A stretch of 61,065 bases of DNA, the filler included, from Dugesia japonica (taxonomy: Eukaryota), in the NCBI GenBank assembly GCA_001938525.1. It is 6 parts of 6 records of this genome, joined end to end, with 100 filler letters (N's around TTAATTAATTAA, not from the genome) between each part and the next. Parts side by side here need not be neighbours in the genome. Positions count along the whole stretch, not along the records: positions 42,603 to 52,726 come from MQRL01578042.1; 5 more parts are not named here. One strand, 5' to 3'. The number at the start of each line of letters is the position of its first letter. Position 1 is the stretch's first letter. Positions 5,904-61,065 of this stretch are shown here, in pieces. Both the position numbers and the translations under genes were made by a program. Under the pieces are notes generated by a model that did no database searches, was not told where the DNA came from, and worked only from the letters and a program-made list of their open reading frames with translations.

Positions 5904-5965
5904 TGGGATTTAAATTAATTAATTCGATTGATTCGTTAAAAGAAATATTAACAATGTACTAAATT

Positions 5966-8765: not shown

Positions 8766-9178
8766 ATGAATTCTGATATTCCTTCAATGTATAGTACTAG
8801 TCAAGCAGGTGGAGAATCACCTTACTTTTTTGGAAACAGTATGAATCTGGTTGGTTGCCAAAAATAGGTAGATTTGCTTTTCCTTTTCTTAAACGTATCG
8901 GTTCATTTGGTATGAAAACCGTTCAGGATGTACTATCTAATAATGGAAAAATACTGTCAACATTAAAATCTAATGCATTACTTAGTGGAGTAACTACTAT
9001 GATTCCAAAAGTATCAAACATATTACCGCAAAGTATAATTAATAAAACACCCTTAGAAATAACTAATATGCTATCAAATCAAGTTAAAACACAACAAACT
9101 CGTAGAAAACGAAATACATCACTCGCATCACGTATAAACAAACGAATGAGAGGACATGTAACAATATTTGCAAATTGA
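8766..9178 (+). pseudogene. Small basic Polinton protein upstream of the major capsid (PW/cupiennin-like)
   Basis: QAGGESPYFFG..SGWLPKIGRFAFPFLKRIG amphipathic motif with an Arg/Lys-rich tail (TRRKR, NKRMRG). Collinear with copy 2. Confidence 0.7.
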
Positions 9179-9902: not shown

Positions 9903-10483
9903 AATATCAAATATCAATAAAAAAACAAATAATTTTGATCGATGCTTTTATTTTAAATGAATTCCGGTGTTAATGTTCATATTTGGTTGAAGAGATCAAT
10001 TACTTAATTTTATTCTAGTTACATTTCAATGTGTAGAACAAAATAATGGTTCTTATAAAATCTCGAGTTCAATATTTCAAAATCTAGACATTGTTAACAT
10101 TTCCTTGACGAAAAACACTTATTTTCGAGAAATATTTACTCAAGACATTATAAAAGGTAATTACACCACAACATATGTCCAATTTATAGTAAGAAATATG
10201 GGATATTTGGATAAGAATATGAATTGTAAAATAACACTTAGTGATTTTAAGGACAATTATCCCTTCTTGTTCTTGCTCCAGAGTATGATATAAATAGAGT
10301 CAATTGCCTCAATAAGGAAGTTTTAGAATGGATATAAATTAACCAAAGCTTTAACAATATCAGCATGTTATAACTTATGGAGTATTTGAAAATGAAATTC
10401 AGATGAAGCTAACGGAACCGTATTAGTGTAAACACTATGCTGTATAATCGGTATATGTTATGAAGTAGGTGTTATTATATTAA

Positions 10484-13217: not shown

Positions 13218-13261
13218 NNNNNNNNNNNNNNNNNNNNNNNNNNNNNNNNNNNNNNNNNNNN

Positions 13262-13273
13262 TTAATTAATTAA
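13262..13273. other. Artificial scaffold linker TTAATTAATTAA flanked by N runs (also 22285-22296, 33371-33382, 42547-42558, 52771-52782)
   Basis: The identical six-frame-stop 12-mer sits between N runs five times, at 9-11 kb intervals. Confidence 0.95.
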
Positions 13274-13317
13274 NNNNNNNNNNNNNNNNNNNNNNNNNNN
13301 NNNNNNNNNNNNNNNNN

Positions 13318-18078: not shown

Positions 18079-19410
18079 CTGCCTCCAAACCGTAAAAATG
18101 GATTTTTTATTTTTCAGTAAATAAGAAAGAAAAGCTATATTTTAATATTTATACAGCATGATACAACAATAATTAAAGGCATTTATAATTAATATTGAAA
18201 GCAGCACCTCTTGAAGCAATGATCTAGTTAATTGTCCGAGACTTCTTGCTAAAGAGAGAAGTAAGTATTTTTTCTTCAGTAGACCAAAATGTTGTTTGCA
18301 GTACGGTCAATAATGCATCCAGATCATTGCACATAGATTTTTAGCTACGTTTTTTCAAAGAATGAAACAAGCCGATATCATTAATGTTTAATTCTGGATA
18401 TTGAGCTGGCTGGTTCGTAACAGTAACGGTTAAAATTAAACTGTCTCCAAAATCAATAAACTTTTGTATGTTGATTTTACTAACATGTGAACGAGTATAA
18501 ACCATTTGAATAAAAACTTTTTTGCACCAGTGCATCTTGTTTAAGATTGCAGGAATGATTTTATTATACACCAGCTTGTAAAAGATGTCAGAAGTAATTG
18601 TGCAATTGACTTTGTAAACATTACGTTTTGTGTGGTTTTTTGAAGATCGCTAACTTACCTGGTCTTCTTAAAACCTTTAAATAACGATTAGACTGTTGAA
18701 ATTATTTTCAGAAATCAGTTTGGCAACAGCAGTTATTATCATAATTTTAGGGATATTAGCCTTGCTTATTAAGGGTACTTTCTTCCTTGGACTATTCTCA
18801 TGATATCTTTCATGACTAAAGGAATACAATTCGAACCATTTTTCATCAATGTCTCATGTATTATATCTGTAATTTCGGCCCCACTTCAAGCTTTAAACCT
18901 TTTGATAATCTATTAAAAGTGAAGATGTTATTCTAGGAACGAATCTAAATTCATCATCTTTAATTATTCTTTGGACACTAGTTGTTGGAATGGCTGTATA
19001 CTTTGAAATGTCACAGATGCTACTAGAGCGCCGCTTACCAATGGCATTTATTACTGCTGCCACTCGTTCTTCGTAGTTTGCAATATAAGGTCTGCCAGAG
19101 CATTGTTTTCTTGCGATTGTATCACGTTCAAAAAAATTTTCCCTCAAATTTCTAACATAGTTTCTATTGACATTGAATGCCTGGCATAATTCTTTGACCG
19201 TTCAGTATTCTGGTTCCACCTTTCTCATCTTAAAAAGTAATATTTCATAATTTAATAAAATCATTTTTTCTTCTTCGTATTGAGTTGACATTTTAAAAGC
19301 CTTCCTAAAATTAAACAAGAATAGCTAATAATAACAAAATTTAAATGACTTGATGAAATTTGATACATTGGTAAAATTAACAAATCCACTTTTTCATGGT
19401 TTGAAAGTAG
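18079..19410 (-). mobile_element. Full-length decayed Tc1/mariner element, DD39D (GT/plant-mariner)-like
   Basis: TA-flanked imperfect TIRs CTGCCTCCAAACCGTAAAAATGGATTT / AAATCCACTTTTTCATGGTTTGAAAGTAG. Transposase motifs SGRP, IDEKWF, FIQMVYTRSH and QPAQYPELNINDIGLF. Confidence 0.85.
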
Positions 19411-22240: not shown

Positions 22241-22340
22241 NNNNNNNNNNNNNNNNNNNNNNNNNNNNNNNNNNNNNNNNNNNNTTAATTAATTAANNNN
22301 NNNNNNNNNNNNNNNNNNNNNNNNNNNNNNNNNNNNNNNN

Positions 22341-25519: not shown

Positions 25520-27723
25520 TTACGTATTATAGTATTTAAAAAAAGGCGCGATCTTATTTTGGTGCAAAATTTACTGCATACTCTAAACACGCGTTCTGTA
25601 GACGTAGGTTTAATACAAAGAATTGCGTTTTATAGTTTTTGTAGGTTTTCAGTTCTCTTACTTGTAATTTTGAATAATGTAAATTTCGATTTGAGCCACT
25701 TAAACTCTGATCCTAATCCTGAGAAATGTTCTGATAATTTATCTTTTTGGAGAAACATATTTAATTCATCTTATAATGATAAATTTTCATTTTTGATCAA
25801 TATTCAACGGTTGTTGAGCCGCTTCAGCTATATCAGTAACATCAAAAGGACAAGAGGCAAGATTTTCTGCAAATGTCAGTATGGGTTTTGATTGGGTAAC
25901 AGTTGGATCCTTAAGGCTTCGCAATAACTTCATTACATCTTCATTTATTCTTTCATCTACACGAATTTTTAAATGGTCCATAAGTTTGTTACTAAAGTTA
26001 CTGTTTATGTCAGAAAGTTTCATAAACATAAATTGCAAAATATTTTCGGCGCTTACTAATGTTGTATCTTCGTGACTGAAATTATCGACAACTAATTTTA
26101 CAGATTCCATTGCTCTGTGTAATAGTTTAGGAGCAAAAAAACCAAAATCTTCAATTATGTTTAATGCTTGAAATTTAATTAATGTCTCCCGAATCGCTAT
26201 TTCCGTTTTTATCAGTAGCTCAATCATATTTGGAATAGAATTCCATTGAATTTTAATATCGAAATGCAGTTCTATCTTGTGGCCTATTTCTTCTTTTACT
26301 TTGCCTAGAAACACATTGCGAACCGCAGATTTTTTGATAAAGCTAACAAGTTTCCTTGACTTCTCTATTAGATCGTGATAATAAAGTTCTTGCTCTATTG
26401 CATCATTACTTAAAATTTCTATATTCATTCCATAATCAAATGTGTCAATCTCATTAATATCATCAATTTCATTACTATCCATAATTTGATCATCATCATC
26501 CTCATCCTCTTGAATATTTATTTTATATAATGTATCATATACTCTTAAATGCAAAGCATGATTTAAGAAAAATTATCTGATTATATCCATATGTCATATA
26601 AATATTTTTTATTGACAGCAGCACTGTAAATCCAACAATGTTTTTAGCTAAATTAACTTAAATTTGTATTTTATCATAACAAAAATTCATTTCTAATCAT
26701 CATAACATAAATTTATTTAAATGATAAATTATTTGTATTGAGAAACTTTTTATTTTTGACTTCCAAAAACAGTAAAAATAGTTGGAAATAAAACAGCAGT
26801 TTTACTGTTACTATTTAACAGTTTTGAAAAACCCTAAATAACACACGTTGTATTGATAAATCATATTGCTTTTTATCCTATTCCTGACATGGAATGGATT
26901 TTTTGGTGATACCATGCCTTTGTCAGACAAAGATTTTCGAAAAAATTCAATTTTGGATAAAGCATTTATGGTAAAACTATCCACCATGGCTAGCTTTCAT
27001 ACAATCTCCTCGATAGTTTGCTGTTTAATAAACGTATTGATTTTTCTTGGCACGTTGTCTGTTTCCACTCCAACGTTTTTATGTTCCCGTTTAATTCCAA
27101 ATTCTTTGTGGGCGTTATTTAAATGACGAAGAAGCCCACTTGTGGAAAACCCTTTGCACATTATCTTTTTATTGCACTTTTTGCAAGTGACAGTTTCACT
27201 ATTTTTTCCTTGGTAAAATATTGCCATGTCTTTGATCCTCCACTTACTATCGACATGATTATAATAACGGTTTTTTCATGAAACTAATTTAATCGATTTT
27301 TGATAGCAGTAGTCTAAAGATAATTAAAAAATCGATAAATGAAACACAAATATAATTATAAAACAAATAGACTATTACAAAATGTTCTTACTTACATTTC
27401 GATTTTGATACGTTAAAATGTATACATTTAAACTACAATTATTTCAAATAAATTCAATAAGCTATTAATAACTAACTCGTTTTTCAAAGTTTTAAACTGT
27501 ATTGCACTCTTCACTCTTCTTTATGTTTATGAATAAACTATCTTGCATAATTAAAAAAATTATTTGTCAAATGTAAAAAATTGAATATCAAAATAAAAAA
27601 GGAAAACCCAAAAATTTAAGAAATTAAATTAAACAAAAAAATTGGTTTCCCGGGATATATTCATTATATTCCGGGATATCCCGCTATCAATTTTATCCCC
27701 GGGATCCCGTTTAAGAAACACTA
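25520..27723 (-). mobile_element. Decayed hAT transposon with BED zinc finger, containing a nested small insertion (~26570-26840)
   Basis: TIR TAGTGTTTCTTAAACGGGATCCC. BED finger CKKC..STSGLLRHL..H, then HALHL, DIKIQWNS and C-terminal IKPTSTERVF. Confidence 0.85.
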
Positions 27724-28882: not shown

Positions 28883-30100
28883 TTCCACTAATACTGTTCC
28901 GTTGGCTTTAATCTGAATTTCGTTTTCTAATACTCTAGAAATTATAACATTTCGATGATGTTAAAGCTTTGGCAAATTTGATATCCATTCTCAAGTTTCC
29001 TTGCTGAGTTAATTGACTCTGATTTATATTAAAATCAGGAGCGAGAACACATGTAAAGAAGGGATAATTGTCGTTAAAATCACCAAGTGTTATTACATAA
29101 TTCATATTCTTTTTCAAATATCCCATATTTTTAACTATAGATTTTATTTATGTTGTAGGTATTATTATCGTTTGTAAACTCTTGAGGACATACTTCTCAA
29201 TAATCAGTGTTTTTCGTTAAGAAAACAGAACCATCATCTGAATTTTGAAATGCTGAACTATAGCTTTTATAACTACCATTATATTGTTCTCCTTTTTGAA
29301 ATGTAACTAGAATAAAGTTGAGTAATCGACGATCGCCAAATATTTGTTTCTTAAAGAACGATGAACTATCTTTACTAATTGCAAATACAACGAATTTTTT
29401 GGTTCTTATTGGATAAATAGCATTTTGCTTTTTTAGTCCCAACTGATGAGCAGCTAGTACTGAATGTTCAACTCGTATACGTTTAACCATTAATTTGTAT
29501 CTAGTAATACATATCTAGGTACATTAGCTGCAGATTCCAAACAAATCTTAGAAGATGCTCTTTTCAATCGAATATGAACATTGACACATGGAATAAGGTA
29601 TTTCGGTTGATCCATGAAATTGAGTTGCAATGAACTGCATATAAACAATTGTTTTGATATTTTAAAAGACTTTTATCTATCTGCTTCTGTTCCATATTCC
29701 ATTGCTGCAAGACAGATATTTTACTATCAACATTATAATTTATTATAGTTTCAATTATTGCTTTGTGAAGATAAGATCCATCCCCACCTTCAATTTGAAA
29801 TTGTTAAACCAAAAAATTACATCCATAAAAAGTGTATGCAAGATATAGTTTGTAGGTACCGTATCATAAGTTTCAGCCATATCTTTACCTGTATTATCAA
29901 CTACATTCACTTTAATATACAATAAAGTATCATTCACATCTAAATATTTTGTTTGAGATCCAATTATAAAAAACCCTACGTCGCTTGGTTATTCAGAAAT
30001 TGAGTTCATAGGAAAGACTTCTTCAAATGTACCACTTTCAATTACAGCTTGCGGAGATTGTCGATCAAAAGTGCATAACTCAGTTTTACCGCAAATTATT
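28883..30100 (-). pseudogene. Major capsid protein, copy 2
   Basis: ICGKTELCTFDRQSPQAVIES, YLDVNDTLLYIK, VKRIRVEHSVLAAH..AIYPI and QGNLRMDIKFAKAL. Confidence 0.85.
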
Positions 30101-30937
30101 TTTCAAATATTGCTCCATGACTTCTCATTTGTTTGTTTATACACGATGCGACTTATTTTTTACATTTTCTATGAGTTTGTTGTGTTTTGACTTGGTTTAG
30201 TAGCATATTAGTTATTTCAGACTGTATTTTATTTCTTATACTTTGCGGTAGTATGTTTGCTACTTTTGGAATCATACTGGTTACTTCACTAGATAACGAT
30301 GACATAACCTTTCCAAGTTCAGCTAATGCATTAGATTTTAATGTTTGTAGTATTTTTCGATCATAAGCTAGTACATTCTGAGCTGCTTTTAAACCCAATG
30401 AACCAATACGTTTAAGAATAGGTTGTTAGATGAGTTTGAAATACTTATCGGGTCATTAATATCAAACCTCGATTCCATAGCAAAATGTATTCACAAACAA
30501 AACTATAAATATAAATTGGCAAATTTAAAAATTCATATTCAAAAACGGAAAATATCAAATATCAGTATTTTGTAAAATATTTTAAAATTTTTATTAATAT
30601 CAAATTTAAAATTTTATATACATTTCACATAAATATTTTAATACACATTAAAATTTTATATTCTAAATTTCTCATTCACTAGTTGTACAAAATTAAATTT
30701 TAAAAATTTATTTTATAATTTATTTTACTAATACAAATCAAAATACAAATCTGATATTAATCAATTCAGCTTTAAAATACAAACAATTTAAATCTGTTTT
30801 AAAAAACTATCTTATATAGGTAAAACAAATCTACCTATTGTTCGTAACCAACCTGATCAATATTGTTTACCAAGAAAGTAAGGTAATTCTCCACCTGCTT
30901 GACTAGTACTATACAATGATACGATATCAGGATTCAT
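30098..30937 (-). pseudogene. PW-like small basic protein, copy 2, split by a solo-LTR-like insertion
   Basis: Homologous to 8766-9178. ORF 30153-30398 is its C-terminal part. Confidence 0.7.
30424..30816 (+). mobile_element. Solo-LTR-like insertion with 5-bp TSD (TAGGT)
   Basis: Begins TGTTAGATGAG. TAGGT at 30419-30423 and 30817-30821. The homologous site in copy 1 has no insert. Confidence 0.6.
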
Positions 30938-32873: not shown

Positions 32874-33327
32874 TGTTGAGGTGAAACACCCAGTGGAATG
32901 AGAAATAAAGTTAAAGGGGATCCAAAATCATTCGCAGTCAAAAGAAAAATAATATTACGGGAAGGAAAATCAAACAAGAATCAGGACCATGGTAATAAAC
33001 AAAGATGGAAAGACTCAGACGATTAAATTAAGTTGGATTAATTAAAATAATCAAAAGAATTATTAAAATTAATAAAGAAAACGATTAACAGAAAAAGAAA
33101 TAATTACAAGAAATTGTCATTTAATTTAAAACAAAAAAGTAATTAAATTTGGGCAGAAATTCGAATTATGACAATAACTTCGCTCCAGATAATCACAGGA
33201 GGATGGCTCAAAAAAATCTCAGGAGAATTTCAGTAAAGGCATCGGAATGTTATCATCAAAAATCTCAACCATGATCTGGAAACCTTCAGCAGGGATTTGA
33301 AGATTGAGCCAATGGCAAACTTGAAAN
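32874..33327 (+). mobile_element. 5' part of a probable LTR, related to 20445-21436
   Basis: TGTTG start and colinear similarity to the reverse complement of ~21020-21436. Confidence 0.45.
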
Positions 33328-33591
33328 NNNNNNNNNNNNNNNNNNNNNNNNNNNNNNNNNNNNNNNNNNNTTAATTAATTAANNNNNNNNNNNNNNNNNN
33401 NNNNNNNNNNNNNNNNNNNNNNNNNNTTACAAATGAATTTAGTATCTTGGTGGATTATTTGTTAAGATTCATAACAAAAGTAAATAATAATTGCAGTAAA
33501 CAGAATTATATTTATATAATATGCATATTCTATCATCTATCCTCTTTTTCCTTTTGAAAATGTGCATGGTGGAATACTAATGCATCTCTGA

Positions 33592-35269: not shown

Positions 35270-36532
35270 CTAGGTTGAGTCAAAAGTTCCCGGACACTTT
35301 AAACTAAAAATATATAGAAAAAAAAGTCATAAAAACATCAAAGTTTTATTCATCAAAATAAAGTCCTTCGCTATATAAGGTCTTCAACCATCTATCAGCT
35401 AAATTTTGGACTCCTTTCTGATACCATTCTTGTGGCTGGGACTGCAAAAACTCAAGGACTCCACTTTCAACATCTGCTACTGAATTGAATTTCTTACCAA
35501 TCAGGACATGACTCATTGACCGGAATAAGTGATAATCTGATGAAGCTAAGTCTGGGTTATAAGCTTGGTTAGGTAGTAGTTCGATTCCATCGAGCTCTTC
35601 TAACTTAGACTTTACCACTTTAGAGTAATGGGTTGGAGCATTATTTACTGCAGAAATACCCGTTTTCTATTGATTAAAGCTGGATAACGAGTGGTCAGAA
35701 ATTCATAAAGTCGTTCNAATTGTTCAACATACCGGTTTTTTATCCACAGCCCGGCCTTCTAGAATAGCTGCCATAATACAGGACACTCAAGATTCCACCA
35801 CATGAATAACATCACCTTGTGTTCGAACCTTCCATTTTTAGCTACCAATGATGCCTTCTGACCTGGCTGAAGCTACAGCCCTTTAATAATAGGGTTTCTG
35901 AAATATATCCACTTTTCATTGCCAGTTATGATTGTCTCCAGAACCTATCATCTTTAGGATTATCCAACAATTTCTTGCAAATTTCTTCCCTCCTTTGTGC
36001 TTGTTGATCAGAAAGTTCATGGCAAAAAAATCTGGGTTTCTAATTTGCAAAACCAAGTTTGTGAAGGTGCCGAACATGGGTTGATTGAGACGTCCCAAGT
36101 TGAGTAGCCAGTATGCGAGTGCCGGTATCTGGCCTTTGTTGAATACCTTGCAACAAAGCTTCAGTTATCAGGACCGATGGCCTTCCAAAACGTGATTTGT
36201 CTTCCAGACTGGTATCGCCTTCATTAAATCCACGAAATTATTCTCCTACGGTGGCTTTTGAAACTATTCCAGGACCTTCAATTTCACTTATTTTCATGGC
36301 TGTTGCTCTTACGCTTAGACCGTTTTTCCAATAATACGCAGGATACCGTAAATTATGATTTTTTATTCGCCATTTTGTGAGCTTCTATGATAAATATTTT
36401 TTAGAAATTAAATCTATAATAATTGACTTACTATATAAAAATAGATAATCCAAATTTTTTTAAAATAACCTGTATTTTTTGAATTAAAATAGACAAAATA
36501 AAAAGTGTCCGGGAACTTTTGACTCAACGTAG
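35270..36532 (-). mobile_element. Full-length decayed mariner (DD34D) element
   Basis: TA-flanked TIRs CTAGGTTGAGTCAAAAGTTCCCGGACAC / GTGTCCGGGAACTTTTGACTCAACGTAG. Transposase from ATG 36373 to 35346 with YNPDLASSDYHLF. Confidence 0.92.
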
Positions 36533-37481: not shown

Positions 37482-38715
37482 ATCGCAACCGAAATATTAT
37501 CACTAAATTTAACAGGTCTTTAGCGATACTATTGAAATAAGATCATTGATGGTAATGTTCGTTTTTTAATTGATGTTGCTCACAAAACTTTGGTTTGAAA
37601 AAGTAGTACTAAAATTTATATTAACACAACATATTGATTGCTTATTTATTATGATAATTGAAAGTAGATTCGTGTGAATTATGAAATCTAGAAAAAATGT
37701 TTGCATTTTCACTTAATTTTCCAAATTAAAATAATAAAATTAATTTTATCTTTTCTAATTAACTAAAATTTCGAAATAAAATTAATATCGAAAACATTTT
37801 AATAGATTTTCCTACTAAAAAAATATTTGTTTTAATTGTAAAGTAGGCCATATTTTGAATTAATTTTAATTACATACAGTTTGCATTTGTTTTTAATCTC
37901 TTTATTGATTTTCTCTTTTAAATTAATTATTTATTTTGTTTGGTTAGTTATGAGAAAGAAATTATTTAGAATTGATAGATAGAGAAGCATATTTATCATA
38001 AAATTTTGCAACTAAACAAACTGACCCATCAACATTAGATTGGTTAAACAACTCTGCCCAAAATCAATTCAATTATAATTGCAATTACCGACCAAATTAT
38101 TCTTGAACAAATATATTTTCTCTGACAATCCCACCAAAATGATCTCGGTTTACAAATACATATTTGATATAATCACAAACAAATTGTCAATTCTCCTCGT
38201 ATCCCTGTCCCGGTCTCTGCCGCTATTACTCGGGACATCTTAGGCTGTCACTGTCCGCAAACAAATCTAGATTTAAATACAATTTTGATCCTGGGGGATT
38301 GATAAAAATCTAGAAGTGTTGCAGAATCCGATAAGTTGAGCTGTGTGTGGACTAATGTAGAATTATCTCAGACAATTTTCCAATTATTGTTTCTTACTCT
38401 CGAGTTTCACTTACAAAACATTAAAATTTCTTTGGACGAAAATATAAGGTTTTCGTTATGGTGTTTGAAGTTATTCATTAATCATTTGCCGATTAATATT
38501 TTGATCATCTAACCATGCAAGAAAGCTTTGGTAATTATTCAATAATAATCAACCATTTAATGAACAAATAAAATGAATTATGCAAAATAATGAAATTGTT
38601 ATTTTAATTCTAGAAATGTAAATAAAGATTAAATTTTTTAAAAAAACTTCATTTTTCATAATTAAATTAAAGGGATGAAATAAAACTTATTAATATTGAT
38701 AGTAGTAGTAACAGA

Positions 38716-38716
<1 letters not shown>

Positions 38717-38784
<68 letters not shown>

Positions 38785-38939
38785 NNNNNNNNNNNNNNNN
38801 NNNNNNNNNNNNNNNNNNNNNNNNNNNNNNNNNNNNNNNNNNNNNNNNNNNNNNNNNNNNNNNNNNNNNNNNNNNNNNNNNNNNNNNNNNNNNNNNNNNN
38901 NNNNNNNNNNNNNNNNNNNNNNNNNNNNNNNNNNNNNNN

Positions 38940-38993
<54 letters not shown>

Positions 38994-39031
38994 CATTATT
39001 ATTATTATCATCACCATCATCATCATCACCA
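38717..39031. repeat. (TTA)n microsatellite with gap, grading into (TCA)n
   Basis: Directly visible. Confidence 0.95.
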
Positions 39032-41785: not shown

Positions 41786-42602
41786 NNNNNNNNNNNNNNN
41801 NNNNNNNNNNNNNNNNNNNNNNNNNNNNNNNNNNNNNNNNNNNNNNNNNNNNNNNNNNNNNNNNNNNNNNNNNNNNNNNNNNNNNNNNNNNNNNNNNNNN
41901 NNNNNNNNNNNNNNNNNNAAATTTTCTTTAACTATTGAAGTTGATAGATGACCAAAATGACTATATATTCCATTTTAAAATCGAATATGATAAAAAATTG
42001 ATACGAATAACCAAAGAAACTATATATTAAAGATAGGTACATTAAATTGAAATTAATAGTAACTAAAGGTTGGACCAGCATACGTGAAAAGAGTTTTTTC
42101 AATTATGAATTTCGCGCGAGTTTAAAAATAAAGTCTTTTTATCAAAAAAACTTTTTGAACACATTAGTATAACCAAGTATTCACTTTTAAAACCGAGTGG
42201 CATTGCATAACTAATTTAAAGTANNNNNNNNNNNNNNNNNNNNNNNNNNNNNNNNNNNNNNNNNNNNNNNNNNNNNNNNNNNNNNNNNNNNNNNNNNNNN
42301 NNNNNNNNNNNNNNNNNNNNNNNNNNTGGCTAACTGTTGGTCTTTACATATTTTGAGACAATTTCCCAAAGCACAAATTTAACAAGAATCGTATTTTATT
42401 AAATTACGGATAATCTTAATTGATATTATAATTGTTTTGAAATAAAAGTATTCTAAATTCAAAAACACTTAAATGAATAAAACCAATCAGAAATTAAAAT
42501 TCNNNNNNNNNNNNNNNNNNNNNNNNNNNNNNNNNNNNNNNNNNNNTTAATTAATTAANNNNNNNNNNNNNNNNNNNNNNNNNNNNNNNNNNNNNNNNNN
42601 NN

Positions 42603-43050
42603 GCTGCTTCTATTGGTTGATCAATCACATGTCCTTTCTTGGCAATAACTTGAGTCCCATGTTTGATGGTAATTTTCCCGGTGGCAAATCCTTCATCGCA
42701 TTGTTGTCCGGTTAGATGTACAGAATGTCTCACTGTTTCTGGGTCAATGATTGAAGTATAACTGTGATATCCACAATGAAATATGATGTTTTTACCGTTA
42801 CTGTACATTCGCGTACTTGGGCCTTATAGTAATCAGACTCTTGATATAAATGGTAGACGGAATTATTACGGAATGAGATTTTCTCCGGGTTTGCGTCTGG
42901 ACATTCTTCTGTATCCACTAACGAGAATACTTCCTTCCCAACTTGCATTCCATCGCATTCGTATGCTAGTATGGCTTCACTTCTGCCCATCATTAAGAAT
43001 AACAAGAGTATTGTAGTGGTTAACGCTTGCCAGGAGTTTCGACGAGGTCC
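42603..43050 (-). pseudogene. env: Envelope glycoprotein N-terminus, chuvirus (Jingchuvirales)-glycoprotein-like, with internal signal peptide
   Basis: RRNSWQALTTTILLLFLMMGRSEA / ILAYECDG..FSLVDTEECP..HLYQESDY..RECTVTV(K)NIIFHCGYHSYTSII..QQCDEGFATGKI after repairing one frameshift in an A-run at ~42790. Confidence 0.75.
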
Positions 43051-43129
43051 ACGTGTCCATCCATTCTCGATCTCATTTAACTGATCCCGAACAATCCTGA
43101 TTACTCTAGTAGCATTTTCATGAGAGGGC

Positions 43130-43530
43130 TGAGGTTTAGGGCATATTGCCTCAATAAACTTTTCCCATCCCCCATGCTGTTTTATNNNNNNNNNNNNNNN
43201 NNNNNNNNNNNNNNNNNNNNNNNNNNNNNNNNNNNTTTGACGGCTTGCTTCTAGCGATTGTTAGGTGTGTTTGATTAATCAGATGCGCTATGGATACTAC
43301 TATCCTTCCCTTCGTTGGCTGCTCTTGTAATAATTCATCCATTACCCCTTTTAAATTATTTCTTGTACCATGACTGGTGCCTTTAGTGGCGGGAAATTTC
43401 CTAATGGCTGCCTCTATTTCCTTTGCCAATGGCCTAAGACTATCAGATAGCTGAAACTTTCCAATCCATATTTTTAACTCTGGGTATAACATTAATAATA
43501 ATTGCCGTATTACTACTTCGGTTGGCATGT
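43130..43530 (-). CDS. Bcl-2-like domain within ORF2 polyprotein
   Basis: BH3-like LRPLAKEIE, BH1-like VMDELLQEQPTKGRIVVSIAHL, and BH2-like IKQHGGWEKFIE (43150-43185, read in the glycoprotein frame just after the N gap). Confidence 0.7.
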
Positions 43531-44344
43531 CATCATCTGTTGAATTTTCGTGGTATCTTTCTTGTGATACCGTTGCTAGTCGCTTAGTTTGATGGTTTAT
43601 TGATGTGGTTAATCGTTTTTGTTTTAAGGCCTCTGGGTTTTCCGGGGGCTTGGTTCTTGACCGACCTCTATTACGAGGTTCCGTAATTGTTTCCGCATCT
43701 ACTCGGGTGCGTACTGGCTTTGGCAGTATTTCCTCGTCTTCTATTTCTATCGGATTTTCCATCTCTAGTGAGTGGTTTGTATCCATCAAATCATCTATTA
43801 CCGAAGATGGCAATTCTTTTGCTATTCTGCTTAATATTGGTGACAATGGTTGGTCTTCCAATATGTCTTCCTCGTCCAAGTCGACCTTGCTAGGGTCGTA
43901 TTTTTTACTGCGTGCTGGTTCTTTCACCTTGATTTCTTCACTTTTTCTAGTTGGAGGAGAATATTTTGTAATTTGTAAGTCGTCTTTGTCTTCTGCTGAC
44001 TCGTCTGCTGATGGTGATCCAAATATTTCACGTTCCCAATCTTGGCTTGTTTTAGGAGTTTCTTTGGTTTCCCGGGACGCTTCAGTGCTTCCAGATTGAT
44101 CTGTTGTAGGTCTTAATATTTGACTAGCCGCTAGTTGTGTACGGTGTTTATATGCTTTTAACATACCGGATGTCTCTCCCATTATTGGTCTGGTTTTATC
44201 TGCTGCTTTATAGGGATCTNNNNNNNNNNNNNNNNNNNNNNNNNNNNNNNNNNNNNNNNNNNNNNNNNNNNNNNNNNNNNNNNNNNNNNNNNNNNNNNNN
44301 NNNNNNNNNNNNNNNNNNNNNNNNNNNNNNNNNNNNNNNNNNAG

Positions 44345-47300
44345 TTTGTATGGTGGTTTAAATGGCAACTTGTCTCGTAGTTGTTTTACCGTATTATACA
44401 CCGGCATTTTAACCGTGATTTTGTCCCCTTCTGGATCGATTATTCTGAATTTAACTTCCAATGGCGTGGGTTGTCCCATCTCCGCTTTTCTCCATTTAAC
44501 TAGAATTTTACTAAACTGAACTGGATCCCATACATGTGCTACTTTGATAGCTAGTATTAATCGTCGCAATTTTCTAAGATCTTCTACTGCCAAATCTTGT
44601 TGTAAGGCTATATTGTATCGTCGCATGATTTCCGGCTTTATTAACTTATCGCCTACTAGTAATTCGAACAATTTCGGTAAATTGTCTTCTGGTTTTTCAT
44701 CTTTGACCGGGGTGTTGGTCAGAGCTGCTCCCATCTATACTCTTTGATTATTTTGCTCTCGTTTAGAGAGTTTAGCTCTAGCGAATATTAATGGATGTAT
44801 TTCTTCCAGGTAATATTCCACTAACTCCCTAGCTTCCTGCTTCCATTTTTCCTCCGAGACCCGTGGTCGTCGTCTCTTCTCATCCCTTGATGTTAAATAA
44901 ATTTTTAATTTAGTACCTGGCCAAACCCCCATATATTTTACTGGCAATCTCATTTGGTCTGATTCTATTACGTGGCTGTAATAGAGTACTATGTCGTCTT
45001 CCTGAACTGATGTTTGCAATCCAGTTTCCTCCTCGTTAAGGCTACGTTNTTGATTCATAAATTTTACAATCCTCTTCCGCAACTTAGCCCATGGTTCGTT
45101 CATTTGGACCTGCCAACGAATTTCAGTTTCGTCGGGAAATCTGATTGTTACCGTGACGGCTTCGTTGGTTATCATTCAAACTGTGTTATTTAATATTGCA
45201 TCCATTATGTCTTCCGGCATTTAACTTATGGCTCGTAATTGATTTAGCTCTAGAACTAATTCAATGACTTTGTCATGTCTTAATAGTTCCAAGTTTTCTT
45301 CCAAGGTTAAAAGTATTTTCATTATTACTCGCGCCAGACTTCCCCATGTTTTACTGTCTTCCCATAACTCAATATTTATCTGCATTGTTCTGTCATTGAC
45401 TACTTCGAATAACTGTCCACTGTTAATTTCTTGTTCGTATAGTTCCTCTAGTTGTTGTATTACTTCCTCCATAGATTTTACCGGGCCTGGAATGTAATCC
45501 TCTGGTTTCTGTATTTGGAGAAATGTATTTTCTCCGGGTCTTAATCCTACATCCATTAAATGTTGTTTTCCTTCAAACTTTATGGGGAATCTCAGATGAT
45601 CGCTTGTGATTATATAGCTTTTCTGCTGGTCGGCTATATCCAGTGTTTCTATAATTTCTTGTAATTCCCCCGCTGATGTACTGTTAAAATGTGGTATGTG
45701 CATGACAGTCAATTCCGGTTCCTTTCTGGTTTTTTTTGTTTGGTGTCAGATATTTTATCGTGACTTGAAAATCTTCTCCCCTGGCACTTGTTTTCACTGC
45801 ACCAATATACGACTTGATTACTGATTCCTACTTGGCACAATCTTCTCTTGCTATTTCAGTATACTTTGTTAGATACATTAGTAAATTTAATGCTTTCCAA
45901 AATGCTACTCGAGGTATCCTTTCCTTGAAATAACAAAAATCCGAAATTATCTTCGATATCCGCTCTGCCTGCGGCGAACTGAAAGGGCCAGCGAATTCAT
46001 GTTTAAATGGTTACAATCGGGGTTGACCAATATCCTCCGAGATTTCTTCCTCCTGCTCTTCTTCATCTGAGGTTAGGTCTGGTGTGTCATGGTCTTTACT
46101 CCGAACCATGTTTATTTGGGCTTTATTTTCGCCATAAGTGTTTATGAGTCGTTCATTCTCTACCGGTAGTATTTCTTGTAGATATAAGCTCATCATGTTA
46201 AATATGAGTTGATCGGTATCCGGCATTTTCGATATTGGGATGTCTACGGTCATTTTACGCGATGTTAGTTTGATTTCTGTGATCTCCCTTGGCTTGATAT
46301 CATGCAAAAAGATATGGTCCTCTTTCTCGGCTAATATAATCATTGTTGCTCCTGCTTGCATTTTATAGGACTTGAGCGATTTTGGTCATAGCCATTTCTT
46401 GATTGGTTTTATGATATGGTTGATCGTTAGTCCTTCCAGCGTTATCATATCTACCTTTTTTATGCTTCCCTCCTTACTAAGTAGGCTGACTCTGATAGAA
46501 TAGTCGGATATAGTGGATGTATTCTGTACTTCCTCTTCGTANNNNNNNNNNNNNNNNNNNNNNNNNNNNNNNNNNNNNNNNNNNNNNNNNNNNNNATTGC
46601 CAAATCCCGTAAGTTATTCATCATTTTCCAATATACTTTGATATTCACGACTGGTCGCGTTTCTCGTGTTACTCTTAGTAGATCATTGATAGCGTGAAAC
46701 GTGGCGGATTCCTCCGTTATCGGTTTGGTATAATTCATCCGAATATCGCGTATTGTTGGCGTGCCTTCTGGGAATATGACGGATTTTGTAGTAATTATTG
46801 GCAAGTTATCGATATTCTGTATTTTCTGATTCTCTTTTACTTGTTCCTTTATGCCAGTTAATACCTCGGATACGTATAATTCTGTTATCTCTTCCATTCG
46901 CTCCTCGAGATCCGGTGATTGATTCGTCCGTGGCTCCTCGTCTACATCTAACTCACATATTTCTCCGGGCTTTGCGTGGCATTGAAATATGTGTTTGTCC
47001 TCGTCGTTGATCTCAACCAATTTGCCATTTATGAACAGAGGTACCATGTTTAGCCCTAGTTCTCGCCACTTATCGGTAATGGCATCAATTAAATCCATCA
47101 TGGTTATTCCTTGTGGTTTTAACCGACTATATTTAGTCAGTTCCTGTTCATTTTTACCTATATTTAAATATAATTTATAATCCTGAATTTTGGTAGTTGC
47201 CAATATCTCTTCGGCATATTTCTGCCTAATCATGAGCCATTGGTTCTCGATTTCCTCCGGTATTTCTAGTCCATCATATATGTCGTAGATTCTATTCATT

Positions 47301-48047
47301 ATCATCCAATAGGTTTCTCGGGGTAAGTTCTCCTTCTCCATCTGTACTCGGTTAACCATTTCCTCCACTTTACGCATTGCTACTACCTCTCTTGATGGCA
47401 TCTGTTGCATTCTTATCATGTTGCATTTGCCCTCTCTTCTCTCCAATCGCTGCCTGAGGAAGTCGTTAGGCGTCATTAACAACTGTTTCCTCTCTTTCTT
47501 TGTCAGTTTATCTTTCTTCGCGAGTACCGTGGAAAGTATCTTGATTTTAATTGGTAATACTCCTGGTTTATATAGATATTCCATTTCTCCCATGATTTCT
47601 AAAGCTGATCTTCCGGTTTTTGTTATCCAGATGTCATAGTCAATACCGGGGTGTTTGTCCAATACTACGATTTCAATGTCCTCTCCTAGTTTTACTCCAA
47701 AATCGTATAGATGTTTCTTTCGGGCGTTAAAATCTATCATAGCACTTGGAGTGCACACATATGTATCAGTTATGCATGGATAACCTGCTTGATTAAGCGC
47801 CGCCTCTAGATCTTCTACCATTAATCCCGTGAGGGTCAATTTCATGTTACCTTCTGGGCTATATAACCATACTTAGTAATCTGATGATTCCATGTTAGAT
47901 ATTACCCATTCATAATGCACTGGTAACCATTCTGTCCAATCGGGCGTATTCTGGTATTTCCCTTCAGTTTCTATTTCTTCTTGATTCATTTCTAAATGTG
48001 AAACATTGATTAACTTCCCCGTGGTTTTTATCTATATACATATTCAT
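44345..48047 (-). pseudogene. ORF2 polyprotein N-terminal part: six ~230-aa repeats each beginning with a ubiquitin-like (beta-grasp) domain
   Basis: Recurring end motifs KHLYDFGVKLGEDIEIV, KHIFQCHAKPGEICELD, DHIFLHDIKPREITEIK, QHLMDVGLRPGENTFLQ and LPVKYMGVWPGTKLKIY, each followed by an E..ELY..E helix. ORFs 45221-45712, 44735-45175 and 43151-44734 share one frame. Confidence 0.7.
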
Positions 48048-48094
48048 TAAGTAAGTTTACCATTTACACTACTTACAGGTAATTTCTCTTTATT

Positions 48095-49700
48095 TTAAAA
48101 TACCAATATACCCGGTGCCTGGTAGTGTCTAGGCACATACATTGGTAATTCGTGAGGTGCGTTTCCTAGCGGAATTCCCGAATAGTTTGGTGGAGCTAAT
48201 CGTAATTGTCGCTCCCGTTTGCTGCGGTGGTGTTTCTCTTTCTTTGGTTTTGAAACAAGTAGACAAATAATGCTTATTATAAGCACCGTAATAATAATTC
48301 CTCCGATACCTAACGCATAACCTAATTCATAACTTCTTGTTGGTTGAATTGTGGTGGTTCTCATAGATTCTGTAATGGATTTTTCTATTATTTCTATGTG
48401 ATTCCTTCTTGGTTCAAATTTGCTTAAATTTGACATCCAATTGTTCAGAAAATTTGCTCTTTTTTCTTCCTTCTCGCGATTCTGTGTTGTGGTGGTTATC
48501 TGAATTTTGGTAGTATTTGCTAACTTGGGTATGTTTGTGTGTATGGGTATTTTGGTAGTCCCTTTTTGTTTTCCCGTTGCCTTGGTTTTTATTATTATAT
48601 CTTGGTTAATTACCGTGATAAATTCAAATCCCCATAAATCTTTGTCAAATTCTCNAATATTCATCTCTTGATACATTTCCCTTCTCCAATAATCTTTAGT
48701 ATTGAATCTCCATCCCCACTCATCAAGATCCTTGATCGTATGTATTAACAATTGTTCCACCTTCTTCACGAACCGTACATAGTACATACCCTTAATTTTT
48801 TTCACTTGTAAAGAATATGGGCCCGTTGCCAATATGGTTTCCACCCCTTAAATTCTTGATTTANNNNNNNNNNNNNNNNNNNNNNNNNNNNNNNNNNNNN
48901 NNNNNNNNNNNNNTATGGAATGTACTTCTCGGCCCTGAGTGACTGTTATGCTCTTTTGTCCTATTTCTACCCCCTTTTTATTCCATAATTCTGTTTCGTA
49001 TTGCATGCGCTGCCATATAATCGTATGGTACAGGTATTCACTTTTTGGACATATTGTCGTTATTTGTCCTCCGGTATCATTTCGTATCCATTCTTTGTGC
49101 CTGAAGTTATTTTCTACATAATATAATACAGAGTTACTTCCTCGTGATACTTTGAATTCTTTACTTGCTTCGTAAATTAATGGGTTGTTCGGATTTCTCC
49201 ACGTTATGTCCCATACTTTTTCTATCTGCCACTTGTCTATATTGAACCCCAATAATCTTCCTTCCACTGGTTCTTGGCTGAGGAGTTGTATCATAATCCT
49301 TCCTTTTGCTCGGTGTAGTTTAATCATGGTGCTTTTTTGACTTTTTATCACTGGTGTTAAAATTAATTGTCCGTAACCATACATTGCTTGTGTTTTCTGT
49401 TCCCTCTGAAATCCTAAACGACTTATTGTTATGACGTGCATCTTTCCTTCCTTGATGAGTATTCTATGTTCCGTTAAGACTGGTTCATTTACCCAGCATT
49501 CTTGACCTCCGATCCATCTTAGGATCATTATTATAGTGGTTATTATGATTTGTCCACTGGAAATTCCATTCTGAGAAGTTACTTGTACCTGTTGCATTGC
49601 TAAGGTTGGTAACGAAAGTCCTACTAGAATTAACAAAATTAATTAAGTAAACAAAATTAATATGCCATAATACCAACTTGTGTTGATTACCGCCCATAAC
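48095..49700 (-). pseudogene. Type-I membrane glycoprotein at the C-terminus of ORF1 (signal-like segments, ectodomain, Thr-rich stalk, TM helix, PPxY tail)
   Basis: Hydrophobic LILLILVGLSLPTLA and IIITTIIMILRWIGG, sequons NDT/NTT/NLS, stalk TTKIQITTTTQ, TM LGYALGIGGIIITVLIISIICLLV followed by KPKKEK, and PPNY at 48182-48193. Confidence 0.7.
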
Positions 49701-50069
49701 ATCAGGGATGCTTTGACTATTATTTCTTCTGTAATCTCATTCTTGCTTCCTTGTGGTAACTCGTTTTTTGATTTTCTTAGTTTTGATCGATCCACCACAT
49801 CTTGTATCAATGTCATTTTCATTTTTTTCGCCCTTCCAGGCGTTATTCTGACTGATTGTCTCTCTTCTTTTTCCATTCCATCCCCTTGACCGTGAAATGA
49901 TTGTCTCATCAATTTCACTTGTTTTTCCAACCCTTCATTAGGATTCGCGATACTGATTGGTTTCAATTTCCTACAAGCCAATTTGTCTGATCGTATGTCT
50001 AGTAAGGTCATATTTTTTGTTTGTGTTTACTTTGAATAGGTGGTTCGACGATTGGATATCTAACTGTTC

Positions 50070-51390
50070 ATACACTCTAATCCAGTTCCATTGTACTAGC
50101 GTACGGTGAAACACATGTATAGATGTTAGTAATTCTTGACTATAAATATCTGTGCATGGCATGCATAATTATTTTTATAATAAATTGACGAATTGGGGCT
50201 TGAACCGGCATTTTGATTCGAGATCCATCACAGTCTTTCCTTAACCGATTTTCTGGTCTGGATAACCACGCTTTTTGATTGTAAATGGCCTTTAGTGCAT
50301 TTTTAAATATTATCTGTGTTTGTCGGATACATTGTAAACAACTCTCTTCCAATTGCAGTGCTGACAGTGGACAAGTTATTTGGTTAATGTGATTGCAACT
50401 TTCTTTGTATCTTGGTGTCTGGCTCCCCTGGCAAGTGATCGTATAGCATGTAGTGGCATTCATAGCTTCAATTGCCAGAGGTCGACGCATTTGATTATCT
50501 AAACCAAAAGATACGGTTTTAACTTCTTGTGCTATAATGGCTGATTTATCATTAATCATAGATGATGTTATTGGAGTTTGAGAAGTACGAATAATACTTG
50601 GTGTCTTAATTATTTTAGGCATAACCAATTTATTCGAATTATTCAATTTGGTTGTGATTAATGCCATCTTTCCAGTATCCGTGTTTTCGTTGTTGATTTT
50701 ATTATGAAAATCCTGACCTGATGCCCCGCCATCTTTCAGTTTCCTTTCTTTCCTCTGTCTGTCTGCGTATTTTAATACGCCCTCCTTCAATAATCGCGAT
50801 ATTTTTTTCAACTCTGTTTCTATCTTTTCATCTTCTTTTGATTGTAGGTCCGCTTTCTCTTCCGAATTCACATCTTTCTCCGTTAGTTCCCCTTCCCCAT
50901 CTTCTTCAGACTCAGCGTCCTCGCTGAGACGTCTCTTCCTTAATAATGATTCTAGCCCGCTCCATGGTGGAGGGTCAACTGGTTTAGACCATAATACCAA
51001 CCAGTCTCATACTATTAATATCGTGTGGAAGTTCTCAATAGCTCGAGTGAGGGTTTCATTATAAATACTGACACAACGTTCGCATAAGGTGTGTATTTCG
51101 TCTTGTTCCAATGGTACTTGAATTGTTAGCTTGTCATGCATTTTCGCACATCGTTTTCTACTGAGTTTATTTTGTTGTAACAACTCAAGTCTGCGACTAG
51201 CGATTTCCCGCAATGTTGATTTCAAAAATGATTGCAATTTCCATATGCATGCAAGGCAATTTGCCTCGATTAGAGTTGGTGAGATTGGGCATGTCACCTG
51301 AGAGAAGTGCGCACAACAGTTCTCGGGCACTAGTGCCTGCGTTCCTCGTGGAATTATAGGATATATTGCCGTGGTACCCAATGCTTTAAC
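50070..51390 (-). pseudogene. Two copies of an unrecognised ~125-aa Cys-rich domain separated by a charged/low-complexity linker (ORF1 extension)
   Basis: CAHFSQVTCPIS..CLACI..RKRC..LCERCVSIY..FHTILIV*DW aligns with CNHINQITCPLS..CLQCI..RKDC..LCMPCTDIY..FHRTLVQWNW. Confidence 0.75.
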
Positions 51391-51479
51391 TCGCTGGCTT
51401 AATTGACCTAATATGAATACTGGGGTGGATATTTTCCCGAGTATCATTATAGCTTGTTGTGATCGTAATTGGTAACTAT

Positions 51480-52726
51480 TTAACTCCAGATTTTCCGACT
51501 TACGTGGCCTACCTGGCCCTCTATGTTCCGTCGCAGTGGGTGCGGTACTTGTGGATGGCGCAGTTTCATCGCCGCCTTTTTGCATAGGTTGGCGTCGTAT
51601 ATCTTTGGTTTTTCTAATAGGTTCCCTTTCCTTCGAACTTTGAGATTAGTTTCCGTTACTTCACTTACTTCATATGGTCCTTGCCATGGCCTTTTTAGTT
51701 TTGATGTAGTGCCGACACAAATGGCTGGTAAATTGACCAATACCATGTCGCCTTTTTTAAAGGAATGCTGCACTGCTGATTTATCTTGTAAATCTTTATA
51801 ACTCTCCTGGTAAAACCCTACATTCTCCTTGACTTGTTTCCATATTTTCTGCATAGTTTCTTTGAAATTTGCAGCGAAATCTGTTTCGTCTTAGTATTGT
51901 GTTATCAGTGGTTGGAATTCCAAGTCAATGGGCATGTTACACTCTCTGCCGTACATAAGACCAAACGGAGTGTATTTTGTTGCTGGATGTACACTCATAC
52001 GGTAGGCAAATAAACACAGTTGAATATGTTTATCCCAGTTATTTCGTTCCTTTTGAGCGTAACTGGATAACATATTGATCAAGGTTTTATTAAATCGTTC
52101 CATTAATCCATCTGTTTGTGGACGATAAGGTGAGGTTCGTAACTGGTGAATTTTGAGGAAGTTCGATATTTCTACTAATATGTTGCTCATAAAGTTCTTC
52201 CCTTGATAGGTCAATATTTTCTTTGGTGTGCCATATCTGCTGAAAAATTTTCGTACCAGAATATCTGCTATGTAGTCGCTTTTTGATTTTTCATAGGGAA
52301 TGCCTCTGGGAATTTCGACAAGTAATCCATGATTGTTAGTATGTAGATGTTTCCACTCAGCGTTGGTGGTAACGGTCCAACTACGTCTATGGCTATTATT
52401 TCCATAGGTGCGGCGGGGACGGCTATTGGTTTTAATAATGCTTTCACGCGTTTACCAGTTCCTCTTCTGGCAAAACATATTTGACATTCGGCGATCCATT
52501 CCTTCACTGTCTCTGTCATGTGGGGCCAGTAATACTTCTGTCTTAATTTTGACTCGATTTTCTTATGGGACATGTGTCCTCCTAGTGCTCCGTTGTGATA
52601 TTGCTCGAGTAATTTATCTCGTCTTGCTTTAGGAATGACTAATACAGTATTTTCAGCCATCCTTTAGTGACTGCATAACGCCCTCCGTTTTTCTTTAAGT
52701 GTTCTTTCATCTTGGGTTCGCATTCT
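51480..52726 (-). pseudogene. pol: Ty3/gypsy integrase (HHCC, D,D35E, GPY/F) followed by an AT-hook
   Basis: HNGALGGH..YYWP..CQIC, IAIDVVGP, LTYQGKNF (second Asp mutated), YRPQTDGLMERFN, KLKRPWQGPYEV, and RGPGRPRK at 51499-51522. Confidence 0.95.
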
Positions 52727-52826
52727 NNNNNNNNNNNNNNNNNNNNNNNNNNNNNNNNNNNNNNNNNNNNTTAATTAATTAANNNNNNNNNNNNNNNNNN
52801 NNNNNNNNNNNNNNNNNNNNNNNNNN

Positions 52827-52892
<66 letters not shown>
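52827..52892. repeat. (ATT)n microsatellite
   Basis: Directly visible. Confidence 0.95.
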
Positions 52893-55550: not shown

Positions 55551-55750
55551 AATTTTGAATGTCCGAAATCTAGGTTAACTGATATATTTTAAGTATTTAT
55601 TCAGAAAAAGGGTAAGTATGTAATGACTATCTAATTTCTAAATGTCTGAAATCTATAGTGACTGATATATTATAAAATAAATATACAGAAAAGCGATAAG
55701 TATACGATTAATGTAAAATTTTGAAATTCCAAAATCTAGGATGGTTGATA

Positions 55751-55818
<68 letters not shown>

Positions 55819-55868
55819 NNNNNNNNNNNNNNNNNNNNNNNNNNNNNNNNNNNNNNNNNNNNNNNNNN

Positions 55869-55936
<68 letters not shown>
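55751..55936. repeat. (TTA)n microsatellite with gap
   Basis: Directly visible. Confidence 0.95.
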
Positions 55937-60050: not shown

Positions 60051-61065
60051 ATATGTGTAATTGAGCAATAATGAAAGATAATAGTGGCATTTGTAAATCG
60101 ATCTTTAAAAAAAACTTAAGAGTACTTATTTTACTATATTCAACACAAAACATCCTTTATTTATAACAAGTTGTAATTGAAAAGTATTTTATCTATATTT
60201 ACGATAAAAAAATGTTTATTGTTTTTCAACGGTTGGATTTATCAAACTATAAGTAGTGACGTCACAGTTGAAAATTGCATAGTAACATTGGAAACAATGG
60301 TACGACTGTGTTTTTGAACCCCATCCTAGCGGGGTCTGATTGTATATGACATTAGACTCTATCCAATCAAAAATTACAAATAAATAAGATTTCACATATC
60401 CCGTTAAGATGGTCGAGTTTAATGTAAATGAAAAGAGAAATTTAGTGTGAGTTTGGATTTTGTTTTTCAAAAGATTATAAATTAACCCAATAGTATAGAT
60501 AAAATGTATCGTAAAGATCAAATTGCGACAGACAAAGGGCTTACATAATATTTAATAATTTATTAACAAAATAAGACATTTTAAAAGTTTAAAATAATCA
60601 GTTTTATTTTAAAAGAAATTTATTAACACTCAATTCCAAATCTGTCCATATTTCTTGTAATTACATTAATTGCCAAATGAACGGTCCCCATACTTGAAGT
60701 TTGCAAATAAAGACGATCCTCACCACTGTAAACTAAATCGGTACGTTTAAGTTGAGGACCGCCTCCAACGAATGTATGAGCCATATCTTCAAAAAATGAA
60801 GATGACGACGGTCTCCATGTCAAAACATCAATTTTATGATATCCTGGTGAAGATGGAACCGAACAAAACCCATATCCATATAATTCTTGTCTTCCACACC
60901 AATCATGATGCCAAACTTGAAAAAAAAGTTTAGGCCATCCTGAAGAAATGTAAAAATAAAAAAAATTTGATGAAGAATAACTATATTATTTAATGTAACC
61001 ATTTGTAGTAATACTGTTGAATGTTTAGGATTACAAATTATAACAGATGTTTAAAAGGAATATAA

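Follow-up and report, generated by a model that had tools for sequence, protein, structure and literature searches.

The window, by which we mean the whole 61,065-nt stretch of DNA analysed here, is built from six unrelated scaffolds joined by N44-TTAATTAATTAA-N44 linkers (13218-13317, 22241-22340, 33327-33426, 42503-42602 and 52727-52826), so that proximity across a linker carries no meaning. One of these scaffolds, 42603-52726 (10,124 bp), is wholly retroelement sequence and differs in composition from the rest of the window (38-41% GC versus 24-27%), with a minus strand rich in A. Four internal N gaps interrupt it (43186-43235, 44220-44342, 46542-46595 and 48864-48913). Its features, in the order in which the minus strand encodes them, are:

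42603..52726, (-): whole scaffold, an inside piece of a decayed giant Ty3/gypsy element
51570..52663, (-): Ty3/gypsy-type integrase comprising H2C2 finger, core and GPY/F region; one frameshift and one stop interrupt it
50185..51462, (-): two copies (51462-51103 and 50553-50185) of a Cys/His-rich domain without known family
48095..50026, (-): post-integrase membrane protein, recognised by hydropathy, ending at stop 48,095
47990..48094, (-): spacer, about 105 nt long, in which every frame has stops; contains a T-rich TTTAG
44343..47989, (-): N-terminal stretch of the frame that carries env, opening at ATG 47,989, with about five probable ubiquitin/SUMO-like units
43150..43530, (-): BCL-2-like domain, split by gap 43186-43235, assigned from profiles and a relative's model
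42973..43030, (-): short hydrophobic stretch, likely the internal signal sequence of env, aligned with relatives' hydrophobic segments
42603..42972, (-): N-terminal ~122 residues of a chuvirus/gB-type env ectodomain, assigned from PF24664, 29 relatives and cysteine columns

Outside the spacer the coding strand carries 12 stops in 3,196 codons together with several frameshifts, indicating that this copy is dead. A motif scan, a repeat search and a map of gaps and linkers revealed no LTR, gag, protease, RT or host flank on the scaffold; no long repeat was found there, the motif scan returned no CCHC knuckle, and the only YxDD-like match lies on the opposite strand.

The other scaffolds carry features of their own. 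One holds a B9-domain ciliary gene exon (60623-60985, (-), PF07162, E 4.6e-34), which marks the assembly as that of an AT-rich eukaryote possessing ciliary genes. Two pairs of ORFs appear related across scaffolds when compared by eye (8801-9178 (+) with 30153-30425 (-), and 9991-10293 (+) with 29197-29514 (-)), and a weak TBP-like ORF occurs at 5526-5909 (-) (E 0.003); we take the paired ORFs and the TBP-like ORF to recall Polinton/adintovirus remnants, without Pfam support. DNA-transposon remnants lie at 26997-27275, 25787-26572, 35346-35666 and 18893-19201 (-), with Pfam matches to zf-BED (E 2.9e-5) and HTH (E 8e-4) and a hAT- and mariner-like appearance by eye. Long (AAT)n microsatellites stand next to gaps at about 38,700-39,000, 52,827-52,890 and 55,750-55,930.

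The envelope fragment and its relatives

The env fragment is cut by the scaffold end at 42,603, where a linker begins, leaving about 122 codons after the AYEC motif. An earlier, sequence-only reading of this DNA had counted about 125 visible residues and placed a frame break near 42790. The peptides that it quoted can be read on the minus strand, split between two frames, and a single frame change between ~42,799 and ~42,787, where the tblastn segments of relatives also switch frame, confirms the break. We left the break unrepaired and analysed its two sides separately against PF24664 (Monjiviricetes_fusion; 653 positions, cut-off 27 bits). Piece 42733-43008 matched profile positions 10-81 above the cut-off (E 1.6e-7, 30.2 bits) and piece 42605-42820 matched positions 80-131 below it (E 9.3e-6, 24.3 bits). 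The two pieces cover adjoining profile positions, and all five conserved cysteine columns within the visible part are kept in the window. The profile match that the sequence-only reading had called for is therefore present on both sides of the break, and its identification of a chuvirus-like glycoprotein stands: judged from its sequence, env is a chuvirus/gB-type fusion glycoprotein. A class III fold is described for the gB-type env family (PMC13524379, in the part available). The env profile had no match in PDB, and a word-indexed homolog search with the env piece gave 0 hits from 50 candidates. Being frameshifted and truncated, the copy on the scaffold cannot make the protein. Depth dips at the frame break (182 at position 42,785 versus a bin mean of 31,467), but it falls at many private differences of this copy, so the dip is no proof of the break, and depth in the spacer bin was discounted as an argument on the same ground.

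Env is not a free-standing gene; it closes an in-frame reading frame of ~1,800 codons. The hydrophobic stretch at 42973-43030 is in frame with the BCL-2-like domain upstream and stayed below 1.6 in a 19-residue hydropathy window, so its role as a signal sequence is one that we infer. Env itself is in frame with the GGW at 43,175 and, over the gap, with the helical domain at 43530-43240. The sequence-only reading had given this peptide as the mature N-terminus of the glycoprotein and overlooked the BCL-2-like domain in frame ahead of it.

A full HMMER search yielded 29 env relatives. We scanned 18 of these for domains, leaving out 11 (two of which were scanned afterwards), and found PF24664 in 17 of the 18. 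Three of the scanned relatives run on into RT, RNase H and IN and three more into protease, such that protease or Pol follows env in six of six relatives continuing past the full env; the order PR-RT-RH-IN is present in P0008 and P0031. In P0009 the order is Arc-like gag, CCHC, ubiquitin-like (E 0.03), Bcl-2-like (E 0.055) and env. All eight full-length relatives carry a hydrophobic segment 519-568 residues past the start motif and 15-17 cysteines, with 14 conserved cysteine columns across the eight; in the window, the place of the hydrophobic segment falls past the scaffold end. The C-terminal TM and cysteines that the sequence-only reading had expected of full-length copies thus appear in eight of eight, and the lack of them that would have told against a glycoprotein was not what we found. 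The window env is 39% identical to P0015 over 67 aa. Compared by eye, P0015 and the printed Smed_errantivirus_1 env disagree at 7 of ~112 positions (about 94% identical), and the window's second env piece agrees with Smed_errantivirus_6 at 22 of 53.

Several relatives are peculiar in their own right. P0019, P0021, P0030 and P0031 carry two to four aspartic-protease-like domains downstream of env. P0008 (HBK71150.1) is a complete env-PR-RT-RH-IN polyprotein filed as a hypothetical protein of a Flavobacteriaceae MAG, likely through eukaryotic contamination of the bin, and P0011 and P0015 join env pieces to host domains (FAD-oxidase C, MRP-L47) and are likely gene-model chimeras. Searches for env loci gave one weak 18-residue match among 17 candidates in viral contigs and none among 370 candidates in metagenome contigs; in a second metagenome search, one of 94 candidates gave a distant env, alone on a contig of 2,096 bp. 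L002 (6-2069, (+)), an open 687-codon env-family frame with no neighbours on its metagenome contig, is 28-30% identical to the window pieces.

Domains upstream of env and the integrase half

The BCL-2-like domain has a BH1-like landmark near 43,309 and a BH2-like GGW near 43,175. A profile built from six relatives only found 43522-43253 as its sole significant match in six frames of the 61-kb window (iE 3.5e-4), a match reached by none of 500 shuffles, and a profile that included the window pieces matched Bcl-xL over BH1-BH2 (E 4.4e-5). The model of the relative P0006 (mean pLDDT 52.6; 57-74 across residues 21-150) matched Bcl-xL in Foldseek (E 5.8e-4) and the BCL-2 family in VIA-align (Z 13.0, rmsd 3.0-3.2 over 126-134 residues), with the first unrelated fold only at Z 5.4. 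Pfam Bcl-2 gave weak matches in 6 of 12 proteins scanned, every one under the cut-off, and neither window piece scored against it on its own. As modelled, then, P0006 has a BCL-2 fold, and on the profile evidence a BCL-2-like domain lies directly before env in the window.

Further upstream, between 44343 and 47989, about five ubiquitin-like candidates, chosen by eye, sit among helical segments in a frame broken by stops and frameshifts. Some of them weakly resemble one another, and one has PF11976 (Rad60-SLD) and PF00240 as its top Atlas clusters at 0.87, which we take as a lead only. A profile of the five window units found no ubiquitin match in PDB, and scaffold 42603-52726 gave no match to a ubiquitin-like profile made from three sequences of relatives. 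The whole 425-aa piece was uninformative in Atlas (best 0.78) and folded from a single sequence at pLDDT 34; for 46597-47872, a word-indexed homolog search returned none of 3,760 candidates. These units are probably ubiquitin/SUMO-like.

At the other end of the scaffold, the integrase has an H2C2 finger (PF17921, E 7e-19) and an rve core (Pfam), and its best PDB matches are the PFV (foamy virus) and Ty3 integrases. Identity to the window integrase is 55% for P0033, 44-45% for P0008 and P0031, which bear env, and 35-36% for P0027 and P0034; gypsy-type RNase H domains occur in four of the five relatives compared in this way. A six-row integrase tree supported no branch, and a word-indexed homolog search with the core gave 2 hits from 55 candidates. 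Domains regarded as specific to BEL/Pao were found neither among the window pieces (Pfam, E up to 1) nor in the 18 relatives. By its integrase sequence, the element is classed as Ty3/gypsy.

The integrase is followed by two copies of the Cys/His-rich domain, which are 28% identical over 123 aa (E 2e-15), have no Pfam match under E 0.15 and may bind metal. The membrane protein after them is laid out as a hydrophobic segment, an ectodomain, a Thr-rich stalk, a TM (about 48310-48254) and a short tail. It has no Pfam family under E 0.007. The tails that follow IN in P0008, P0027 and P0031 share this layout with no detectable sequence match to it, so that in the window and in these three relatives a second, fast-evolving membrane protein closes the Pol polyprotein after IN. 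We would guess that it serves as a receptor-binding partner of env.

The spacer between this protein and the env-bearing frame holds 4 stops in 36 codons (counting the stop of ORF1 itself) versus the 12 in 3,196 elsewhere. Its stop-rich zone extends over only ~60 nt, the frame being open from ~48,034. TTTAG, which occurs five times on that strand, ends two bases ahead of ATG 47,989 and could mark a splice acceptor or the junction of two elements. We considered an LTR inside the spacer and rejected it, as the spacer is too short and neither a repeat nor a primer site was seen.

Copy number and expression of the element family

The element family is very high-copy in two organisms: 18,926, 14,419 and 3,714 contigs match the scaffold in DNA runs X1, X2 and X8, and each of the three runs covers 30 of 30 bins. 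Most matching contigs are less than 95% alike, and the scaffold copy has many private differences. Summed depth over the scaffold is not the same as copy number; as ratios, the depth of the env-bearing frame is 0.83, 0.82 and 0.71 of that of IN in the three DNA runs, and the post-IN part reaches 0.04-0.09 of IN depth, with a step near 48,000. In RNA run X11, 103 reads of 13.6 million match the scaffold, 84 of the 103 being under 90% alike, and no splice joint appeared among the joints listed for that run.

Gene order and the place of the element among known systems

Elements of this kind have been described. In the available part of Arkhipova and Yushenova 2019 (PMC6431247), planarian Burro polyproteins comprise Gag, Ubi2/SUMO-like (PF11976), BCL2, env and protease, and the Burro env matches mononegavirus fusion glycoproteins. 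Burro/GYPSM1 elements are giant gypsy-like LTR retrotransposons of dugesiid planarians, over 30 kb in size with long LTRs, against the 10.1 kb of the scaffold, and they are de-repressed on knockdown of the piRNA pathway (PMC8532177, in the part available). They share with the window the BCL2-like and env parts in one frame, preceded by a Ubi2/SUMO-like part that is probable in the window, as well as the mononegavirus-like env matches and a very high copy number; in one Burro-bearing species, copies decayed by stops and frameshifts have been reported, much like the window copy. The Burro module lies between Gag and protease, whereas the window has no gag upstream of it and an integrase and membrane protein instead, and its scaffold ends within env; the window also differs in its roughly five ubiquitin-like candidates, and MATH, BIR and ankyrin domains were not detected in it (Pfam). 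Since gag, protease, RT and LTRs are absent from the scaffold, membership in Burro rests on cargo.

Chary and Hayashi 2026 (PMC13524379) report, in the part available, an Anakin/Chuviridae-like glycoprotein adjoining gypsy POL in 114 arthropod elements and a widespread HSV/gB-type env, with six Schmidtea elements of 14.5-18 kb in the supplement; the flatworm arrangement given there is GAG-ENV-POL, and that part reports no other. Their Platyhelminthes C1a 'ancient errantiviruses' have the env family and Ty3/gypsy Pol of the window, with ~40% identity to the window env among Schmidtea members; unlike the window element, they are intact and carry env ahead of Pol. Anakin, the mosquito BEL/Pao elements with a chuvirus-like glycoprotein (Dezordi 2020, PMC7642597), has the glycoprotein family of the window env within an LTR retroelement, but differs in its BEL/Pao Pol and mosquito hosts, and the available part of that source mentions no BCL-2-like or ubiquitin-like cargo.

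The association of gypsy elements with env, planarians included, is thus already known. The sequence-only reading had proposed an independent, new association, a claim that fails because gypsy elements with chuvirus-type env are already reported (PMC6431247 and PMC13524379, in the parts available). It had also expected the locus to bear on whether the gene moved from virus to retroelement or the reverse; we found nothing that bears on this, and ~120 residues of env cannot give a direction of transfer. Its assignment to gypsy and not BEL/Pao is borne out by the gypsy-type integrase on the same scaffold and strand and by the lack of listed BEL/Pao domains, but this integrase lies 8.6 kb upstream across four N gaps, and env may not belong to it.

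With neither gag nor LTR between integrase and env, the odd order reflects either a new POL-then-ENV arrangement or two joined Burro-type copies, at about even odds. The scaffold would be a single element, GAG-POL-membrane protein followed by a second frame (ubiquitin-like, BCL-2-like, env) probably expressed from spliced RNA, with a likelihood that we place somewhat short of even. All parts lie on the same strand, the step from the ORF1 stop at 48,095 to ATG 47,989 falls inside a single gap-free contig, and contigs in both X1 and X2 cross 48864-48913, the sole gap separating IN from the spacer. Neither an LTR nor gag would fit inside the spacer, and the rare TTTAG, a signal chosen post hoc, stands beside the ATG. 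The env/IN depth ratios also agree with one element, although a GAG-ENV-POL family would likewise yield a ratio near 1, and a joint of 43118 to 49849 in X1 and X2 points the same way but weakly, its short side being 28 bases. Against a single element, protease or Pol comes after env in every relative that continues past it, the flatworm elements in the available part of PMC13524379 are all GAG-ENV-POL, and the post-IN part has 4-9% of IN depth, as if it belonged to a smaller subfamily than the env side. The spacer, moreover, is spanned by none of the contigs listed, and the joints listed in X11 include no splice. Two Burro-type copies joined together, to which we give close to an even chance, would agree with all known relatives: the end of one polyprotein would be followed by the middle of a second copy's GAG-ENV-POL polyprotein, its LTR and gag lost by deletion or recombination and its Pol lying past the scaffold end. 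The depth step near 48,000 and the short extent of the stop-rich zone, with the frame open from ~48,034, fit such a join, and rearranged copies would be expected in so large a family. A join does, however, need a breakpoint that falls no more than ~100 nt from a single stop and also next to a plausible ATG and an acceptor-like signal, and no CCHC knuckle or LTR remnant was found on the scaffold. The low post-IN depth speaks for a join, and the place where the junction falls speaks for a single element.

Two further explanations seem to us less probable. Short-read assembly across a high-copy repeat could have produced the order artificially, as the assembly is fragmented, with four gaps in 10 kb and thousands of related contigs, and no piece longer than ~400 nt falls on the stretch among the matches listed; we consider this improbable, since the step in question falls within one contig that has no gap, and the many private differences and the contigs mostly below 95% alike should help an assembler to separate this copy. 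Least probable by far is that an independent endogenous chuvirus element landed beside a gypsy element. Insertions of Jingchuvirales glycoproteins often have gypsy fragments at their sides, with no clear capture, in the available part of Dezordi 2023 (PMC10084718), but here env is in frame with the BCL-2-like domain, as in retroelement polyproteins, its relatives are retroelement polyproteins, and its copy depth equals integrase depth.

We therefore hold with good confidence that the locus preserves a frameshifted chuvirus/gB-type env start with a BCL-2-like domain ahead of it, and that the element around it is a dead member of a giant, high-copy Ty3/gypsy family, likely of the Burro kind, in a host that is likely a planarian. 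The anatomy, together with general knowledge of the fusogen and BCL-2 families, suggests how intact copies could work. The long precursor would enter the ER at the internal signal sequence, where signal peptidase would free the env N-terminus. Relatives have a C-terminal TM; anchored by such a segment, the ectodomain would serve as a class III fusogen and let particles pass from cell to cell. The cut signal sequence would stay near the BCL-2-like C-terminus, in the way that host BCL-2 proteins carry a tail anchor. Placed on the cytoplasmic side, the BCL-2-like domain would probably make the producing cell less prone to apoptosis.

The env/gypsy pairing is published across animals and this copy is broken and truncated, so the locus matters little in the sense first claimed for it. 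Its useful additions are evidence, at the level of structure, that in this lineage a BCL-2 fold immediately precedes env, and the position of the cassette after integrase; only the position of env downstream of integrase may be new. The literature searched, which was the text of open-access articles, describes no POL-then-ENV Burro. The published filters, in the available part of PMC13524379, allowed a POL-ENV gap of up to 1,000 nt and searched up to 5,000 nt downstream, so an env 8.6 kb after IN would escape them. If other copies show this order too, the cassette would have been rearranged as a whole between GAG-ENV-POL and GAG-POL-ENV in a single lineage, which bears on the evolution of env position. 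More tentatively still, and with the balance tipped against it, the ubiquitin-like/BCL-2/env cassette may have moved out of Gag-Pol to become a 3' gene of its own, spliced and located downstream of Pol and the second membrane protein, an order that can be likened to the 3' spliced genes of a complex retrovirus. Were such a separate cassette true, it would be the first POL-then-ENV order for flatworms in the literature searched, one missed by the published filters, and env would travel with an anti-death domain as one module.
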